From NCBI GenBank assembly GCA_048881705.1, contig JBHLSH010000004.1:5410-69409 (forward strand): a DNA stretch of 64,000 nucleotides. The letters run 5' to 3'. Both the position numbers and the translations under genes were made by a program. The DNA is from Candidatus Heimdallarchaeota archaeon (GTDB lineage: Archaea > Asgardarchaeota > Heimdallarchaeia > Hodarchaeales > Hodarchaeaceae). Positions 2,884 through 64,000 of the stretch are shown here, piece by piece. The first letter of the stretch is position 1. Every line of letters starts with the position of its first letter. The notes under the pieces are model-generated. The model worked only from the letters and a program-made list of their open reading frames with translations. It did no database searches and was not told the origin of the DNA.

Positions 2884-3912
2884 TCAGTGTTCTTCGAGCT
2901 TTGCTATCAAAGCTTCCACTTCTGGTATAGAGAGCCGGGAACGTTCTTGAAAGAGTCTATAAACTCGTTTGTGCATATCTAAATCTCTTATAATGACAGT
3001 AAGTGCTTCGGGGCGCATCCCAAGCTTATCAGGCCCCTGTTCAATTGAAACGACGATGTCAAACAAGCGTCGTGTGCATGCCATTACATCAAAAAGATCC
3101 AAATGCTCTAGCTTCTTCATACTTATCTCGGCGTATCTTTTTTTGAAGTAAAGGCGACGTTCTTGAGTTCTGTAGGCCTCTATAAGCATGAGAGCCCATG
3201 CAAGATCCATTCGATAATCTGATATAGCAAAACCACTCCAATCAATGACATAGGGCCTGTTATGCACATCGAGAATGATGTTATAGGGATGGAAATCATT
3301 ATGGGTAATCGCTAAAGATATCTCAAGATCCCGATTCATGGCTTCCTCTTGGATCCATGAAATAGGCTCTAAAAAACCCCCAAATCCGGAAGCCCTTATG
3401 GTAGCTCGATATTTATCCAATGTTTTCTCGAGAAATCCGATAGGCGAGTAAGATTTTACATAAGGTATCAATTTGCGCCATTTTAGTTCATGTAGCTGCA
3501 CTAACAGTGAAGCAAAGAGATCCACTGCTGAAGGATCGGACGAATCTCCAAGAAGCCCACCAAAGATTCTTTCCATAATACAGAATGGTTTACCGCTAAA
3601 TGGCGAGTTCTTTTGCTCTCCATAATGATAGACCTCAGGTACTGGGTAGCCTAGAGTTTTTAGATGCACCATTCCCGAGAATTCCCGTTTAGATTTTGCC
3701 TCCGCATCTTTTCCAGGATAAATCCGTAATATCAAATCCTGCTTGGGATGGATGCTTTCTGAAAAGGTGAAAGCGTATATCTCTGTCTCCCACCCATCAG
3801 CGAATCGTTCAAAGCTAGGAATCGAAATATTATCAATCTGGGGAAATTCTTTTTTATAATACTCCAGTAAACGATGTTTAATTTGTGAATCTGTCATTGA
3901 ACAGCTTTCCAC
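2884..3912 (-). CDS. Aminoglycoside phosphotransferase (APH/choline kinase-like) family protein
   Basis: Catalytic HNDFHPYNI (Brenner motif) and Mg-binding IDWS; N-lobe GWET...LRIY. Confidence 0.85.
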   Translation of the reverse strand: MESCSMTDSQIKHRLLEYYKKEFPQIDNISIPSFERFADGWETEIYAFTFSESIHPKQDLILRIYPGKDAEAKSKREFSGMVHLKTLGYPVPEVYHYGEQKNSPFSGKPFCIMERIFGGLLGDSSDPSAVDLFASLLVQLHELKWRKLIPYVKSYSPIGFLEKTLDKYRATIRASGFGGFLEPISWIQEEAMNRDLEISLAITHNDFHPYNIILDVHNRPYVIDWSGFAISDYRMDLAWALMLIEAYRTQERRLYFKKRYAEISMKKLEHLDLFDVMACTRRLFDIVVSIEQGPDKLGMRPEALTVIIRDLDMHKRVYRLFQERSRLSIPEVEALIAKLEEH

Positions 3913-56697: not shown

Positions 56698-57606
56698 ATG
56701 ATGTATTCCCACGCGCCGCATAAAATTCTATTCATGGGTCTTGGAGCTAGTGGGAAGAGTTCGATCCGCGCTGTTGTGTTTGAAGGTAAATCGCCCGAAG
56801 AAGTCAAGAACTATGATGCAACCATAAATTATTACAGGTCTGCAAAGACAATAATTGATGCTGCGTTTCAAATCTTTGACTGTGGGGGCCAGGAGAACTT
56901 TATTTCGGCCTTCATAGGAGACCAAGCAGAATTTATGTTTAATAACGTAAAGATTCTTTGTTGGGTAGTAGATGTAGGGGATCCTGATCAGATCTCAACA
57001 TCGAAGTTTTACTTCGATCATGCTGTAAATCGGTTGGCAGAATATTCTCCTGAAGCGACGATCTTTTGTTTGTTTCATAAAATCGATTTACTCTTGCCAG
57101 AGATGGTCGGTAAAGTAGAAGCCACCATGAAAAAGTATTTCAATGCAGCGGGCAATTTTGACGTCCATTATTATTCTACTTCAATTTTCACTGAATCTAT
57201 TTATCACGTGATGGGTGAATTAATTCGTAAACTTATTATAAGGTCAGGTACGGTAAAAACCGTTTCTGAAGCAATACAAGATTTCGTTAACACAAATACT
57301 GAAATCTCTGGTATAGCTTTATATACCGAGGAGGGCTTGCCAGTTCTTGAAGAAGGCTTTTTAAGCCAAAAAATCGTTTTACCTGCGAATTTATGGTTAT
57401 CGAATAAGAATAGGCTACGTAAAGAATTTAATATTTCCGATACCTATAAAACAGCTCTAGAGACCAAAAATTATCTTTTGATTTCACAACTGGTTAAAGG
57501 AAAAGAAACTTTACTCATTGCGGGAATAGCAGAAAAAACAGTACCTATTCAATTTTTGATGACAAAGATGGACCAATTTGCTGCGGTGTTGACCAATCTA
57601 TTCTAA
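56698..57606 (+). CDS. Rag/Gtr1-like small GTPase with roadblock-like C-terminal domain (Rag-1)
   Basis: G1 GLGASGKSS, G2 ATINY, G3 DCGGQ, G4 HKID, G5 TSIF; CTD begins IALYTEEGLPV. Confidence 0.9.
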   Translation: MMYSHAPHKILFMGLGASGKSSIRAVVFEGKSPEEVKNYDATINYYRSAKTIIDAAFQIFDCGGQENFISAFIGDQAEFMFNNVKILCWVVDVGDPDQISTSKFYFDHAVNRLAEYSPEATIFCLFHKIDLLLPEMVGKVEATMKKYFNAAGNFDVHYYSTSIFTESIYHVMGELIRKLIIRSGTVKTVSEAIQDFVNTNTEISGIALYTEEGLPVLEEGFLSQKIVLPANLWLSNKNRLRKEFNISDTYKTALETKNYLLISQLVKGKETLLIAGIAEKTVPIQFLMTKMDQFAAVLTNLF

Positions 57607-58628
57607 CTTGGTTTATCCTCATCACCAACGGCTTTAAGACAAATAAGATTATTCTCAATCGTTATCTGGGGAAGCAATCCTGCTTCTTTTGCGTCCAAAA
57701 ATAAATGTATTATCAATTCAGGAGTCAATCCCGACTGCCGGGATAATGTATCAATGCTTATTTCACGTTGGTTTTGAAGAGATTTTAAGGCAAATTTGAC
57801 GACATCCTGACGGCGAGGAGCCAATTTTTGCTCGAAAAAAGCATCCAGATCTTCAAAGGTAACCAAGCTATCATCTAGCCGGATTCTAAAATGAATCCCG
57901 TTTTGAGCTGGTGCTTCAATTCCGAATTTGGTCAACATCCTCTGGATTTCGAATGGTTCGCTAATTAGCTCAACTTTGAACATAATTCCTTGTTTAAAAT
58001 CTTGTTTAAAATCATTAACAGTTTGTAAAAGCTTACTTTTCTGCCCAGGAGTATATTCTTTTCTAATAAGCGCTTTTATTTCTTTATTGGAATGATCCAC
58101 GAGTATTATGGGAGCATCACCGGATATTAGAGAGATATGAGACATTGGTTCCACCTTATCAAGAGGTGAAATATAGTAGCTTTCAATACGAGTATCTATG
58201 ATCTGAATCCTTTCATCAATCTTCTTCATAGTCTCTGCATCAAGATCGGTATCGGTTTCGATTCCATATATCTGTAAACTTCTCTCTAGTAATTTTTTAA
58301 TAACCCCAACGTAACGCATAATGCTATAGGATCGTGTAATAATCCAAAAAACAATAATCCTTCCAAATTGGGCAATACGTTGATCCACGGTATTGCCAGG
58401 CTTTAATGTAAGGCAAAAACCCAGCGTCAAAAGGGGTTCCTTAGGAGTTGGCAAAGGACCATACGATCTAATCTCATTCTGTTCGGGAAAATCGGATCCC
58501 ATCGCAGTTAGCAGTCTAAATGCCATATTCAATGCTTCATCTTCGTTAAGAGGAGACGAATTGTAGATATTAGTAGGGCCAATGTCCTCAAATATCGTTA
58601 CAACTAGGCCATCAGTTGTTTTTTCCAT
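57603..58628 (-). CDS. uDENN/longin-like + gelsolin-like + winged-helix protein
   Basis: LVVTIFEDIGP N-terminus; IILVDHSNKEI...EP.E gelsolin-like core; ISIDTLS...AGLL..I.I winged helix. Confidence 0.55.
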   Translation of the reverse strand: MEKTTDGLVVTIFEDIGPTNIYNSSPLNEDEALNMAFRLLTAMGSDFPEQNEIRSYGPLPTPKEPLLTLGFCLTLKPGNTVDQRIAQFGRIIVFWIITRSYSIMRYVGVIKKLLERSLQIYGIETDTDLDAETMKKIDERIQIIDTRIESYYISPLDKVEPMSHISLISGDAPIILVDHSNKEIKALIRKEYTPGQKSKLLQTVNDFKQDFKQGIMFKVELISEPFEIQRMLTKFGIEAPAQNGIHFRIRLDDSLVTFEDLDAFFEQKLAPRRQDVVKFALKSLQNQREISIDTLSRQSGLTPELIIHLFLDAKEAGLLPQITIENNLICLKAVGDEDKPS

Positions 58629-59179: not shown

Positions 59180-60601
59180 GTGGTCAATATGAAACTATAC
59201 AATTCTCTAACGCAACGAAAGGAAGAATTTATTCCTATTGTGGCTGATAAAGTTCGTTTTTATTCTTGTGGCCAGACAGTTTACCAGGATGCACACGTAG
59301 GAAACGCCAGAACATATTCCTTTTGGGACATATTAGTCCGATATCTCCGTTGGCGTGGATTTGATGTTTTTTGGGTACAAAACTTTACTGATGTTGGACA
59401 TTTGACCGATGATGCCGACTCGGGCGAAGATAAAGTAATCAAAAGCGCCATTGCAAAAGAAATGCAGCCAATGGTGCTGATAGAGAATCAGATTAGACGT
59501 TTCTTTGAAGAAATGGATGCCCTGAACATTCAAAGAGCGGATATTTACCCACGGGCGACGGCAGAGATTCCAGAAATGATAGAGTTTATTAAGGACCTTT
59601 TAGATGGTGAATTTGCTTATGAGGTAAATGGCTCGGTCTATTTTGATATAACCAAGTTTCCAAAATACGGAGAGTTAAGTCCAACAACCTACACAGAAGA
59701 ATCGGAAGGGGCCAGAATCGCCATAAATCCAGAGAAACGTAACCCAAAAGATTTTGCACTATGGATTAAGGCGCCCCCAGAGCACCTGATGAAGTGGCCT
59801 TCCCCTTGGGGTCTGGGATATCCTGGATGGCATTTGGAATGTTCCGTAATGTCACAAAAGTACTTGGGAACCACCATAGATATTCACGCGGGCGGAATTG
59901 ATCATTTGCATCTCCATCATCCCAACGAAATTGCCCAGTCGGAGAGTCGAACTGGGGAGAAATTCGTCAATTATTGGGTGCACGCTGCTTTTCTTACGGT
60001 AGAGGGAGAAAGAATGGGCAAATCGAAAGGAAACTACATTCTTGTGCGAGATCTTCTACAAGAACACGACCCGATGGCTGTTCGTTTATTTTTGATAAAT
60101 TCACACTACCGTAAAAGCGTTGACTTTAATCAGCAAGTCTTTGAACAAGCAAAAACTCTTTTATCGCGGATACGAACCAATGTTGCATCACTTCAAAGCT
60201 CTAAGGGTGGAAAAAACCGCAGTCTCCAAAATGCAATTACCTTGGTAGAACAGGAATTTATATCTGCCATGGATGATGATCTAAACACTGTAGGCGCGTT
60301 GCAGGCTATCCTTCACTTCGTTAAAAAGGTTAATGCCGCATTAGATAACGAGAAAAGCATTCTCGATGAAGCGTGCGGTAAAATTATCCTGTTGATGGGA
60401 ATTCTCGGTATTCAACTGAGTGATTTCCAAGAAGGCACTGCTTCAGTTGCAGGCCTTATAGAATTATTGGTCTCCCTTCGAGACCAGCTTCGGGACGCCA
60501 AACAATACGAAATTGCTGATAAGATCAGAGCCCAATTACTAGAACAAGGAATTCAGCTCGAAGACAAACCAAATGGAACCATCTGGAAAAAAAGCCAATA
60601 A
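59180..60601 (+). CDS. cysS: Cysteine--tRNA ligase
   Basis: YSCG.TVY, HVGNA, NFTDV, PWG.GYPGWHLEC, HHPNE, RMGKS. Confidence 0.96.
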   Translation: MVNMKLYNSLTQRKEEFIPIVADKVRFYSCGQTVYQDAHVGNARTYSFWDILVRYLRWRGFDVFWVQNFTDVGHLTDDADSGEDKVIKSAIAKEMQPMVLIENQIRRFFEEMDALNIQRADIYPRATAEIPEMIEFIKDLLDGEFAYEVNGSVYFDITKFPKYGELSPTTYTEESEGARIAINPEKRNPKDFALWIKAPPEHLMKWPSPWGLGYPGWHLECSVMSQKYLGTTIDIHAGGIDHLHLHHPNEIAQSESRTGEKFVNYWVHAAFLTVEGERMGKSKGNYILVRDLLQEHDPMAVRLFLINSHYRKSVDFNQQVFEQAKTLLSRIRTNVASLQSSKGGKNRSLQNAITLVEQEFISAMDDDLNTVGALQAILHFVKKVNAALDNEKSILDEACGKIILLMGILGIQLSDFQEGTASVAGLIELLVSLRDQLRDAKQYEIADKIRAQLLEQGIQLEDKPNGTIWKKSQ

Positions 60602-60695: not shown

Positions 60696-61598
60696 CTATA
60701 ACAAATCCTCTACAAGTCCAGCCAACTGATCCATCTTCACCATCATGTACTGAAGAGGAGCAATTTTATGAGCGACACCTGTAAGTAAAAGCTCTGATTT
60801 AATTCTCTGAAAGATAAAAAGATAGTCATTTGTTTCCATGGTCGTTTTAAACGTATCAGATCTGAACTCAGTTACAAGACGGTCTAGGGTGGTTAACAAT
60901 AGGTTTGCAGGAACAACTATCAGATTGGCTAAATCTCCTTCTTCAAAAACTGGCAATCCCTCCTCAGTATATACCGCAATCCCGGATAGTTCTTTGTTTG
61001 CTTCAACGAATTCCTGGATTGCTTCGCTTACTGTTTTGGCTTTAGTGTTCTTCCGAATAATGCCTTGTACAATTTCACCGACAGCTGAATAGATACTTTG
61101 GTCAAAGATAGAAGTCCCTTTATAATGGATCACAAAGTTTCCTCTATTGGGAACAAAATATGATTTCATAGTTTCCAATATTTGTTCTTTCATGTTCAAA
61201 AGAATCAAGTCTATTTTATGAAAAAAGCAAAAGATTTCAGCATGAGGGGAGTATTCATCTAGGCGTTTAACAGCTTGATCGAAGTAGAATTTGGATGTTG
61301 AAACTTGATCAAAGTCGGATACATCTACAACCCAGATTAGAAGATCTACATCTGAGAATATAAACTCCGCTTGTTCTCCTACGAAAGCGGAGATAAATGA
61401 TTCTTGGCCCCCGCAGTCAAAGATTTGAAATGCACTGTCAATAATGTGTTTCGATGAGCGCGTATAGTTGATAGTCGCCCGATAGTCTGTTACATCGATA
61501 GGCGATTTTCCTTCAAAAGCTACGGCGCGAATACTACTTTTCCCTGATGCTCCAAGACCCATGAAAAGGACTTTTTGTGTGGTTGGTTGTGAAGTCAC
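60696..61598 (-). CDS. Rag/Gtr1-like small GTPase with roadblock-like C-terminal domain (Rag-2)
   Basis: Same G1-G5 motifs as Rag-1; CTD begins IAVYTEEGLPV. Confidence 0.9.
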   Translation of the reverse strand: MTSQPTTQKVLFMGLGASGKSSIRAVAFEGKSPIDVTDYRATINYTRSSKHIIDSAFQIFDCGGQESFISAFVGEQAEFIFSDVDLLIWVVDVSDFDQVSTSKFYFDQAVKRLDEYSPHAEIFCFFHKIDLILLNMKEQILETMKSYFVPNRGNFVIHYKGTSIFDQSIYSAVGEIVQGIIRKNTKAKTVSEAIQEFVEANKELSGIAVYTEEGLPVFEEGDLANLIVVPANLLLTTLDRLVTEFRSDTFKTTMETNDYLFIFQRIKSELLLTGVAHKIAPLQYMMVKMDQLAGLVEDLL

Positions 61599-61628
61599 CC
61601 CATATCACGCTCACTCGAATTCCAACGA

Positions 61629-61638
61629 ATTTAAACCC
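61629..61638 (-). promoter_or_regulatory. Candidate TATA box for Rag-2
   Basis: GGGTTTAAAT on the minus strand, about 30-40 bp before the GTG at 61598. Confidence 0.35.
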
Positions 61639-61654
61639 TTGATTCTACTATAGA

Positions 61655-64000
61655 TTAGTCTTCCTTTATCAACTCTGTTGTTCCATATATCTTTTCATAG
61701 GACAAAATGATTTGGGATACATATTTTCGAACTTCAATAATCATTCTTCTGATTGTGTCCTTCTCTTCTGGGCTTTCATCCATTAAGATGTGGAGAATAT
61801 GCACTTTCGCCTGAATTTCATCCAGAAATTGATTGACCAATGGAAATAATTCCTGATGAATTAAAACATTTAACGTAAGGTCCTCTTGTTTTCCACGCGA
61901 ATCGGGTCTGTTTAGAGCAAAGCCAAACGTCATCGATTTAATCCGGGCCCCGTGACTTAATACAAAGTCATAGCTCGAAGAGATTTCCCGACTGAATTCG
62001 TCACAAAATCCTGTACTGCTGAAAGATCGATCAGATAGGTCAACAAGCTTTCTAAAATTATCGTTAAGAATGGCAGGCTCAACAATTATTGGGATCGGGC
62101 CATGTCGTTGATCAAAGAAGGAAACCACAATTCCAACGGTATGTTCATCCCAGGAATTCCTTACCTCGGTTTCATCAACATCCGAACATGATCCTAGCAC
62201 TAGCTCTTTGTCAAGGCCAACGATTTCAGGCTTTCTTATAAATTTGACATACACTATTGATCCAAAGATGGCGGAAATGATTGTTATCCCGATTATTATT
62301 AATACAAATGTTGGATCGATCCCTGGTGGCGAAAATGTAAATCGAGTTTCATTGATCCTTTCTGGATCATTGTTTATATCGTACGCTATCCCTCTATTTC
62401 CTAATGAATCCAGTGTCTCGATATAGTAGATTATTTCTCTTGAAGTTTGATTGTGATCGAACCTGACTGTAGCCGTGTATCCGTAGATACCTCCATCATC
62501 GCTGGTTTGGGTCATTTTTACAGTACGCCAATTTTGCCTTATGGCCGAACCCGCACCCCCCGTAGAATTGGGTTTTTGGAAATAATAATACAAGATAACA
62601 TCAGCTATTTCAGACCCGTAATCCACAATATCTGTATAAAATGTAATATTGGTGGGATTCAATTCATCATTAAATTCAAATCGTGGCATTCCCGTAACAC
62701 GGGGTGGAGAACGATCCTCTACAACAAAAGAGTCCATATAAAGGGTGTATATACTGAAGTCTCGAGCGTTATAAGTAACGACACTGCTCGCTTCAATCCT
62801 GACGGTTAGCATAGTATCAAGAAATTCTGTCTTAAAGTCTTCCTTGGGTAATTGGTATAATAGCGCCCAGATGGAATCATTGTTTGCATCTTTAATGGCA
62901 CGGTACGGGACTCCAAGGCTATCATTCAGAGTGATTTCGATGCGGTCAATTGGGATAAGATTGGTTGCTACTATCGTTAGGTTATACATACCCTCATCGT
63001 AATAGTAGCTTCCTTCTCCTTCATTATCCTCAATAAGGGGCGTTATGATCAAATCAAGAATCTTGGGGCGACTTTCGACTATTAATTCTGGGAAGGTAGT
63101 TCCAGTTCCAATATCTGTTCCATCAAACGGAGTAACAACACATTTCCAGTGATCGCCTGGAAAAGTTTCCGAATGAGGTATAGTCGTTGAATTCTGATAG
63201 GTTAAAATCTCAATCCATGTTCCAGACTCAAGCTGATAATACCATTGAATCAAGGATTTATCTTGGTCAATGGGGATATCTGAGTCCTCAAATTCATAGT
63301 AGATTGATAAATCCTCATCATCTACAAAGAAGATCTGAATTGTTAAGGAAGTTCTTATGTCTGGATCTACTAGACTGTTATTTGGATCGAAAACATAATT
63401 GTAGTTACCTATAATCGGGATTGTATTTAATATAATTGTTGCTGAGGAATTATACTGAATTGAATAATTCTCTCCATCGAATACTCGTAAGGTAAATCTC
63501 CAAGAATCCCCTTTTGAGGTAATCATGGATGGAATTGTTTTCAAATTGCTGTAAGCAGCTTGTAGCTGATTATTTCGATACCATCCGATGATCCAATTAA
63601 TGTCCTCAATATCATTGTCCGCATCGCTGTATAGCCAAGTTGCAGTTAAGTCATCAATAGTACTGGGGGAGGGATTAATACCTAAACCCGATGCCATTGG
63701 CTTAGAATTTAATATTGTTACATTGAATGAGGTGAAAAGAAGCCCGTAATCTCTACCATCTTTTGGACGGAGGCTGAAATACCAAATGTCACCCTTACTG
63801 GTTTCACTTGAAGGTATTAATTTTGTATCATTAAGAAGAATCTGTAATTCTCCATTCTTGTACCATCGAATCAATGATCCCGCCTCAGGATGACTTTGAT
63901 TGTCAAAATAATCATAATAGGCTATTAAATTGTCCAGTGTTGTAGGATTTAGGGTCAAAGACAGGTTTTCAGCGGTGGGAGGGTCATTTGTTGAGGCCCC
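61655..64000 (-). CDS. Large single-pass surface protein (Ig-like repeats) with cytoplasmic uDENN/longin domain; 5' end lies outside the window
   Basis: Frame open to the window edge (GASTNDPPTAENLSL...); N..P...P...WY.N Ig repeats; TM at approx. 62240-62310; IVVSFFDQRHGP...DSRG domain. Confidence 0.8.
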   Translation of the reverse strand, partial: GASTNDPPTAENLSLTLNPTTLDNLIAYYDYFDNQSHPEAGSLIRWYKNGELQILLNDTKLIPSSETSKGDIWYFSLRPKDGRDYGLLFTSFNVTILNSKPMASGLGINPSPSTIDDLTATWLYSDADNDIEDINWIIGWYRNNQLQAAYSNLKTIPSMITSKGDSWRFTLRVFDGENYSIQYNSSATIILNTIPIIGNYNYVFDPNNSLVDPDIRTSLTIQIFFVDDEDLSIYYEFEDSDIPIDQDKSLIQWYYQLESGTWIEILTYQNSTTIPHSETFPGDHWKCVVTPFDGTDIGTGTTFPELIVESRPKILDLIITPLIEDNEGEGSYYYDEGMYNLTIVATNLIPIDRIEITLNDSLGVPYRAIKDANNDSIWALLYQLPKEDFKTEFLDTMLTVRIEASSVVTYNARDFSIYTLYMDSFVVEDRSPPRVTGMPRFEFNDELNPTNITFYTDIVDYGSEIADVILYYYFQKPNSTGGAGSAIRQNWRTVKMTQTSDDGGIYGYTATVRFDHNQTSREIIYYIETLDSLGNRGIAYDINNDPERINETRFTFSPPGIDPTFVLIIIGITIISAIFGSIVYVKFIRKPEIVGLDKELVLGSCSDVDETEVRNSWDEHTVGIVVSFFDQRHGPIPIIVEPAILNDNFRKLVDLSDRSFSSTGFCDEFSREISSSYDFVLSHGARIKSMTFGFALNRPDSRGKQEDLTLNVLIHQELFPLVNQFLDEIQAKVHILHILMDESPEEKDTIRRMIIEVRKYVSQIILSYEKIYGTTELIKED

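Follow-up and report, generated by a model that had tools for sequence, protein, structure and literature searches.

A folliculin-class longin domain forms the tail of a giant, probably surface-exposed protein encoded beside a Rag-like GTPase in a Heimdallarchaeial archaeon

The end of a 64,000-nt stretch of DNA from a Candidatus Heimdallarchaeota archaeon (assembly GCA_048881705.1, contig JBHLSH010000004.1, positions 5,410 to 69,409; hereafter the window) holds the 3' part of a gene for a 3,666-residue protein, read from the minus strand and closely followed by a gene for a Rag-like GTPase, Rag-2. The protein has the layout of a single-pass type I receptor: an N-terminal anchor, a large ectodomain, one transmembrane (TM) helix and a cytoplasmic domain. 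Its tail is a longin domain of the class found in FLCN, SMCR8 and NPRL2. We give even chances to the reading that this membrane-tethered longin engages the nucleotide face of a Rag GTPase, likely in the role of a GAP (GTPase-activating protein) acting through a single arginine, R3587. The features of the locus, in window coordinates, are as follows.

61655..64000, minus strand: 3' part of the 3,666-residue gene (residues 2886-3666 plus stop); the gene goes on past the window
Outside the window: N-terminal hydrophobic anchor, residues 6-28, assigned from hydrophobicity
63398..63964, minus strand: two of ~11 tandem beta-sandwich repeats of ~95 residues (residues 2898-3086), from repeat spacing and a model
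62243..62311, minus strand: the single TM helix (residues 3449-3471), Kyte-Doolittle 19-residue mean up to 2.76
62174..62242, minus strand: juxtamembrane linker (residues 3472-3494, RKPEIVGLDKELV...), conserved among the paralogues whose tails were compared
61658..62173, minus strand: the longin domain of the cytoplasmic side (residues 3495-3666), with which the protein ends
62096..62101, minus strand: GP motif, G3519-P3520, in the beta1-beta2 loop, from alignment A1 and the predicted Rag-2 interface
61895..61897, minus strand: CGT codon of R3587, the candidate arginine finger in the beta4-beta5 loop, from conservation and the predicted interface
61599..61654, minus strand: 56-nt spacer from the receptor stop (TAA) to the Rag-2 GTG, with TTTAAAT ~30 nt before the GTG
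60696..61598, minus strand: Rag-2, a 300-residue Gtr1/RagA-type GTPase (PF04670, E 5.1e-39, residues 9-200) and proposed client of the tail
56698..57606, plus strand: Rag-1, a paralogous 302-residue Rag-like GTPase (phmmer E 8.2e-115 to Rag-2), listed for context only

Retrieving the full gene redefined the protein. The first-pass annotation had worked from a called open reading frame (ORF) of 767 residues; this minus-strand frame (61655..63958, from an internal TTG) is open to the window end, and its length is an artefact of the window edge. The complete gene reaches G000:C4:78064, the window being G000:C4:5410-69409 in the same coordinates. The landmarks reported for the shorter frame were correct. 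The arginine codon at 61895-61897 is CGT on the coding strand and encodes residue 688 of the 767-residue ORF, which is R3587 of the full protein, within ALNRPDSRGKQEDLT. One strong hydrophobic segment in the 767-residue ORF precedes GIVVSFFDQRHGPIPI and is the single TM helix reported there. The gap to Rag-2 on the same strand is 56 nt, from the receptor stop at 61655 to the GTPase start at 61598. Residues 6-28 and 3449-3471 are the only strongly hydrophobic segments in all 3,666 residues, and the protein runs from a signal anchor through five DUF2341-LamG units, ~11 beta-sandwich repeats and the TM helix to a tail of 172 residues.

The ectodomain is a chain of repeated domains with the composition of a surface protein. 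Pfam places five DUF2341 plus Laminin_G_3 units in the N-terminal 1,900 residues of the full protein, a region outside the window, and finds no family in the window-encoded part of the receptor. Residues 2040-3090 form ~11 tandem repeats spaced 93-97 residues apart (alignment A4). Modelled with AlphaFold2 (AF2), one ~95-residue repeat is an all-beta sandwich with a predicted local distance difference test score (pLDDT) of 90, and its best structural matches are immunoglobulin (Ig), fibronectin type III (FN3) and macroglobulin-type domains at Z 6-7.7. Searches with the repeats returned no Pfam family, no PDB sequence match and no Foldseek match at E<0.001. The earlier description of these repeats as Ig-like therefore holds only loosely, for a beta-sandwich fold with some resemblance to Ig, FN3 and macroglobulin domains. 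N-x-S/T sequons number 88 in the ectodomain (residues 29-3448), against 53.5+/-6.8 in shuffled sequences, and are absent from the tail, a distribution compatible with type I topology and an ectodomain on the outside. Only five cysteines occur in its 3,420 residues. Such a composition points to a surface protein that bears many N-linked glycans and has few disulfides, if any, and we regard the whole as probably a giant, glycosylated, single-pass surface protein of an Asgard archaeon. Its LamG and beta-sandwich domains are compatible with ligand binding, and equally with an adhesin or envelope role.

The tail has a longin fold. An AF2 model built from alignment A1 reached pLDDT 91 and a predicted template modelling score (pTM) of 0.87, and runs from a short N-terminal helix through beta-beta-alpha-beta-beta-beta-alpha-alpha-alpha. 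The GP motif lies between model strands E12-21 and E25-32, and the arginine in the loop between E77-88 and E96-106. We ranked structural matches by exhaustive VIA-align comparison, reading chain identities from PDB entry titles; root-mean-square deviation (rmsd) is given for the first two.

8yqg_B, Asgard longin: Z 14.3, rmsd 3.2, 141 aligned
6nzd_H, lysosomal folliculin complex: Z 12.4, rmsd 2.7, 135 residues
4zy8_C, Lst4: Z 12.0
7o2w_A, C9orf72-SMCR8 complex: Z 11.9
8adl_S, SEA complex: Z 10.8
6lt0_B, C9orf72-SMCR8-WDR41: Z 10.3
8fw5_C, GATOR1: Z 9.9

Roadblock, GAF and PAS folds rank below the longins in this comparison, at Z ~7. The top Foldseek rows pointed to a LOV/PAS identity, which we set aside because those rows have template modelling (TM) scores of ~0.36 at an rmsd of ~10 Å, against TM scores of 0.45-0.57 for the longin rows, and because VIA-align puts longins first. 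The AF2 model, the VIA-align scores of Z 9.9-14.3 and Folliculin-profile matches among homologues together uphold the first-pass placement of the tail in the FLCN/SMCR8/NPRL2 class. We hold its fold class and its homology to longins of this type with high confidence.

Relatives of the tail form a family of C-terminal, membrane-proximal domains. A full HMMER search of 1.84 billion representative sequences recovered 140 relatives, all with the domain at the extreme C-terminus of proteins of up to 5,809 residues, and 107 of them were aligned as A1. The homologous proteins end a median of 5 residues past the domain (maximum 15), and a TM-like segment lies 19-40 residues upstream of it in 95 of 104 homologues. 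Conservation in A1 peaks at G25 (107/107), P26 (105/107), R93 (106/107) and E97 (104/107); HGP occupies residues 3518-3520 of the window protein. Loss of the arginine among Asgard homologues had been offered at the outset as grounds for refutation, and it is kept in all except one of the aligned sequences.

Sequence profiles tie this family to folliculin. PF11704 (Folliculin) is matched by 30 of the 107 homologues at E<=1, with a best E of 1.7e-4, and the next family by five. Two paralogues from this genome match it at E 0.005, and their matches span profile positions 47-116 and take in the arginine; arithmetic from the matched ranges puts that arginine at about profile position 61. The Folliculin signal is thus present in part of the family, and the window tail itself has no match. 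PDB sequence searches with the tail, A1, the tail of a distant paralogue (from the C19 cluster, below) and a 430-residue soluble longin returned coiled-coil and designed-helix noise and no FLCN, NPRL2 or SMCR8. Because no DENN domain follows the longin, the tail is not a full FLCN-family member, and the domain is best called an FLCN-class longin, not folliculin.

The two conserved loops resemble those reported to mark longins with GAP activity. GP together with an arginine finger is a signature common to FLCN, NPRL2, SMCR8 and one class of Asgard longins, and the GP and loop arginine are found in GAP longins, not in GEF (guanine nucleotide exchange factor) or scaffold longins (PMC12290439). 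By hhalign, the tail arginine aligns with the arginine of soluble Asgard PF11704-type longins. R3587 is a candidate equivalent of FLCN R164, on the strength of Pfam profile position, topology and the published statement on Asgard longins; in SMCR8 and NPRL2 the corresponding arginines are R147 and R78.

Genes for Rag-like GTPases recur beside genes for these tails. All three LamG-type homologues looked up in other assemblies are flanked directly at the 3' end by a Gtr1_RagA gene, in the same or in convergent orientation, and some of these loci include another Rag close by. In the genome collection, searched for loci with a closer sequence set (A2), ~28 loci extend for 3 kb or more downstream; 9 of them have a Rag gene within 10 kb, and 6 within 3.5 kb. 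Among five congeners, coordinates as we read them indicate at least three arrangements: a same-strand Rag immediately downstream of the tail (G102:C1, G241:C112), a convergent Rag-long of ~740 residues beside it (G102:C4, G102:C50, G241:C28), and a Rag just upstream of the tail gene (G139:C9, G211:C28). Because the arrangements vary, inheritance of one ancestral locus is unlikely. Chance would place a Rag gene within 10 kb at ~2-3% of loci, a rough estimate from 9 Rag-like hits in 3.96 Mb (9-12 per congener); Rag neighbours exceed this rough figure ~tenfold, among related genomes that are not independent.

The window's own genome repeats the pattern. Two of its six LamG-type paralogues abut a Rag gene, and the two are divergent neighbours with Rag genes on both outer sides. 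The second receptor (G000:C4:80945-92404; L028) has 3,065 residues, a tail 57% identical to the first and EARGGQ at the arginine; it is divergent from the first receptor and convergent with Rag-long, a 744-residue protein with a Gtr1_RagA domain (E 9e-31) and ~550 uncharacterised residues. Homologous Rag-long genes of ~700-750 residues flank receptors in other genomes. Rag-2 itself has 154 homologues, mostly named Hodarchaeales, Hodarchaeota or Heimdallarchaeota, and its DCGGQ switch II and HK.D motifs are invariant in their alignment (A3). In the 56-nt spacer we saw no T-run after the receptor stop, and Rag-2 may have its own promoter there. A cysteinyl-tRNA synthetase gene (59180-60601, plus strand; tRNA-synt_1e, E 5e-103) stands between Rag-2 and the gene for a 341-residue protein, and because it sits on the opposite strand the Rag cluster is not one operon. 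The 341-residue protein (57603-58628, minus strand) has no Pfam match, and its gene converges on Rag-1, whose end it overlaps. Residues 1-75 of this protein match the soluble longin profile A5 weakly, GP aligning with GP (hhalign E 0.0034, probability 9.6%). BLASTP and hhalign found no match between the protein and the tail alignment A1; it may be another longin.

The same pairing occurs within single proteins. In other Asgard families the tail profile matches soluble proteins of ~470 residues, which make up 13 of the 14 non-congeneric relatives examined (L066-L079). All four of those scanned begin with a longin of PF11704 type, scoring up to 25.5 bits against a cut-off of 23.3, and also carry a Gtr1_RagA domain (E 1e-20 to 1e-27). 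A 355-residue relative (L074) instead joins a longin to a Ras-family GTPase. The tail family aligns with the N-terminal longins of the fusions at an hhalign probability of 98.5% (E 1.7e-15), GP on GP and ARG on ARG. The link between tail and Rag, first drawn from this one locus, thus recurs both as gene adjacency and as domain fusion.

Structure prediction places the conserved loops of the tail on the nucleotide pocket of Rag-2. We predicted a complex of full-length Rag-2 (A3) and the tail (A1) with GTP and Mg. It scored 0.65, a mark that 58 of 80 solved complexes and 2 of 110 mismatched pairs reached; none of three controls scored above 0.00. Between runs at least 95% of contacts agree, and the pLDDT of the partner is at least 85. 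On Rag-2 the interface takes in residues 16-17 of the P-loop, 38-41 and 43-44 of switch I, and 65-68 of switch II (QESF of DCGGQESF). On the tail it takes in residues 20-27 (FDQRHGPI), helix alpha1 (44-56), and 93-96 and 98 (RGKQ and D). In the predicted complex the GP and arginine loops thus contact elements of the nucleotide pocket, as the first-pass annotation had expected of an arginine finger.

Tail-bearing proteins are expanded in this lineage. The genome encodes nine copies of the domain, all C-terminal, in ORFs of 987-4,342 residues; eight keep RPxxRG, and the ninth has Q for the arginine. Among the six LamG-type paralogues the tails are 47-68% identical and the ectodomains 32-47%. Within the phylum, 78 of 251 genomes have a match, and 15 of the 16 that belong to the window's genus carry one to 11 copies, in frames of up to 10,431 residues; the frames of 8,821-10,431 residues that end in a longin tail in four congeners (G062:C193, G102:C10, G211:C52, G119:C87) are extremely large for archaea. 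A species-representative collection yielded 36 loci, all in Asgard metagenome-assembled genomes, for the most part under the labels Hodarchaeota, Hodarchaeum or Heimdallarchaeota; the closest locus is 95% identical and carries the submitter label Thorarchaeota.

Variants of the domain occur elsewhere in the genome. In one cluster (C19; G000:C19:4-17876) three giant genes in a row, for 3,423, 1,546 and 986 residues, each end in a longin tail, the third with Q for the arginine. Other genomes have the same triple, at the P0091 and P0104 loci, and no Rag lies near it there. The triple recalls the pairing of a catalytic with a non-catalytic longin, as in FLCN/FNIP. A standalone protein of 430 residues (G000:C1:94137-95429, minus strand) matches PF11704 at 23.3 bits in the genome search and at 22.9 bits when scanned alone; it carries the motifs EEAGP and PDPSVRGKN, and its GP and arginine align with those of the tail family. 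Beside its gene lies a 163-residue ORF that looks Roadblock/LC7-like, by eye only.

These observations fit a receptor that could hold a Rag regulator at the membrane. The longin tail would be held ~25 residues below the membrane and dock on a Rag-like GTPase, most likely Rag-2, through the GP loop, helix alpha1 and the R3587 loop, which would contact the P-loop, switch I and switch II. GTPase activation would be the most likely effect, with R3587 supplying the arginine finger on the cytoplasmic side of the cell membrane. We favour a GAP that uses R3587 because GP and the loop arginine are reported to separate GAP longins from GEF and scaffold longins (PMC12290439). We think it somewhat probable that the tail engages a Rag-like GTPase directly. 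That it acts as an arginine-finger GAP has close to an even chance, and that the ectodomain controls signalling through it seems unlikely. In its most extended form the proposal would be an expanded Heimdallarchaeial receptor family, with up to 11 copies per genome and up to ~10,000 residues per protein, whose arginine-finger GAP tails let the ectodomain set the Rag nucleotide state directly. We consider this form rather doubtful; if true, the lysosomal FLCN/GATOR-Rag nutrient axis would have a prokaryotic precursor at the plasma membrane, with receptor and GAP in one chain.

Several observations weigh against a GAP that works on Rag. Most longin platforms are GEFs or scaffolds, not GAPs. We identified no second longin partner, while eukaryotic longin GAPs are heterodimers of two longins, of which one is non-catalytic (FNIP, NPRL3 or C9orf72), and no DENN or NPRL2-type domain follows the longin, the window protein ending ~5 residues beyond it. 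The window tail has no Pfam match even at E 10, no NCBIfam match even at E 1 and no match in a PDB sequence search; around the arginine it reads DSRGKQED, against a family consensus of EARGGxEN. Roughly two thirds of family members have no Rag nearby and about a third stand beside one. The complex score may reflect likeness to the solved FLCN-RagC, GATOR1-RagA and C9orf72-SMCR8-Arf1 structures, and the run differed from the calibration in its custom alignments and its riding ligand.

A tail that binds Rag without activating it accounts for much of the same evidence. Here the tail would be a membrane anchor or scaffold that brings Rag-like GTPases to the cell membrane, much as the Ragulator platforms of roadblock and longin domains do on the lysosome, or else an effector site or a GEF. 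The arginine would serve binding or structure, and signalling might even run inside out, with the state of Rag deciding where the giant surface protein is placed or how it clusters. Most longin and roadblock domains act as platforms or GEFs (PMC10933270, PMC3747258), and the longin dimer 8yqg, which is the top structural match, has no assigned activity. Gene linkage, fusion and docking fit binding without catalysis, and no second longin partner was found. We nevertheless judge this somewhat unlikely, since GP and the loop arginine, the marks of GAP longins (PMC12290439), are near-invariant in the tail family, and the predicted interface is the P-loop and both switches, a GAP-type face, and not the C-terminal roadblock domain of Rag.

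The GTPase served might instead be of another kind, Arf-like or Ras/Rab-like, with Rag adjacency a special case of this locus. C9orf72-SMCR8 acts on Arf (PMC12290439), the relative L074 is a longin fused to a Ras-family GTPase, and most family members lack a neighbouring Rag. The fusions speak for Rag: the ~470-residue kind makes up nearly all of the non-congeneric relatives examined, and every one scanned carries Gtr1_RagA. Adjacency to Rag also recurs across several paralogue lineages and arrangements, and the Rag-2 complex prediction passes its controls, so we consider a different client quite improbable. Least probable of all, in our view very much so, is that the tail is an oligomerisation or sorting module of giant adhesins or S-layer-like proteins with a coincidental Rag neighbour. 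Longins do dimerise (8yqg), and the C19 cluster carries three such tails in a row, in a divergent subfamily with no Rag nearby; the idea leaves unexplained the near-invariant GP and arginine in surface loops, the fusions to Rag, the ~tenfold excess of Rag neighbours and the complex prediction.

Among known systems, the tail is close in design to human FLCN, which in FLCN-FNIP2 is the GAP for RagC/D (6NZD, 8DHB). Shared with it are the longin fold, GP in the beta1-beta2 loop, an xRG arginine in the beta4-beta5 loop, the predicted docking on the nucleotide face of Rag, and a weak but consistent PF11704 signal across the tail family. Unlike FLCN, the tail has no DENN domain and no identified FNIP-like partner, is ~12% identical in sequence, and ends a 3,666-residue single-pass surface protein, whereas FLCN works in a soluble complex recruited to the lysosome. 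NPRL2 of GATOR1 and SMCR8 of C9orf72-SMCR8-WDR41 share the fold class and the GP/arginine signature (PMC12290439), but in soluble multi-subunit complexes with extra C-terminal domains and not as a single longin on a membrane anchor. Asgard Folliculin/SMCR8-type longin proteins and longin-Rag fusions (PMC12290439; Liu et al., bioRxiv 10.1101/2020.10.19.343400) are clear homologues, with GP and arginine aligned. In contrast to the soluble ~470-residue fusions, longin and GTPase are here separate proteins: the longin is attached to a TM helix and a giant ectodomain, and Rag is encoded next door. The Lokiarchaeota Roadblock-Longin protein 8YQG is the best structural match of the tail and the only PDB sequence match of the soluble Asgard longin profile A5 (E 0.0015), but it lacks the xRG arginine at the position aligned by HMMER and has a soluble roadblock plus longin architecture. 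In concept, the receptor also resembles the plexins of eukaryotes, which cross the membrane once and carry a GAP for Rap in their own cytoplasmic part. The plexin GAP has a RasGAP-like fold and plexin ectodomains are different, so that the likeness is one of a receptor with a built-in GAP and implies no homology.

We know of no FLCN-type regulator on a giant membrane sensor or adhesin in eukaryotes. Published work has annotated Asgard longins as Folliculin/SMCR8-type, with GP and an arginine finger (PMC12290439), and has described longin-Rag fusions and NPRL2-like longins fused to two-component signalling domains (bioRxiv 10.1101/2020.10.19.343400). Tran et al. reported longin-GTPase and roadblock-GTPase fusions and found that in MK-D1 GTPase genes do not as a rule share operons with longin genes (PMC10933270). 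None of the three papers uses the word "transmembrane", and in the literature searched, whose coverage is incomplete, we found no description of a transmembrane, giant-ectodomain longin or of its Rag neighbourhood. The new part is thus the membrane-anchored giant-receptor form and its Rag linkage; arginine-bearing Asgard longins and longin-Rag fusions were already published.

Longin tails of this kind bear on how Rag signalling was organised in the relatives of eukaryotes. Whether Asgard longins with GP and an arginine finger serve ArfR or Rag has been asked in print (PMC12290439), and three concordant computational answers, from neighbourhood, fusion and predicted docking, point to Rag. A tail of 172-195 residues and a Rag of 300 residues would make a small soluble construct for a direct GAP assay. 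In this family a giant sensor or adhesin would hold an FLCN-type regulator at the cell membrane, which bears on the organisation of Rag signalling and membrane identity before endomembranes. It suggests a direct link from membrane to Rag in close relatives of eukaryotes.

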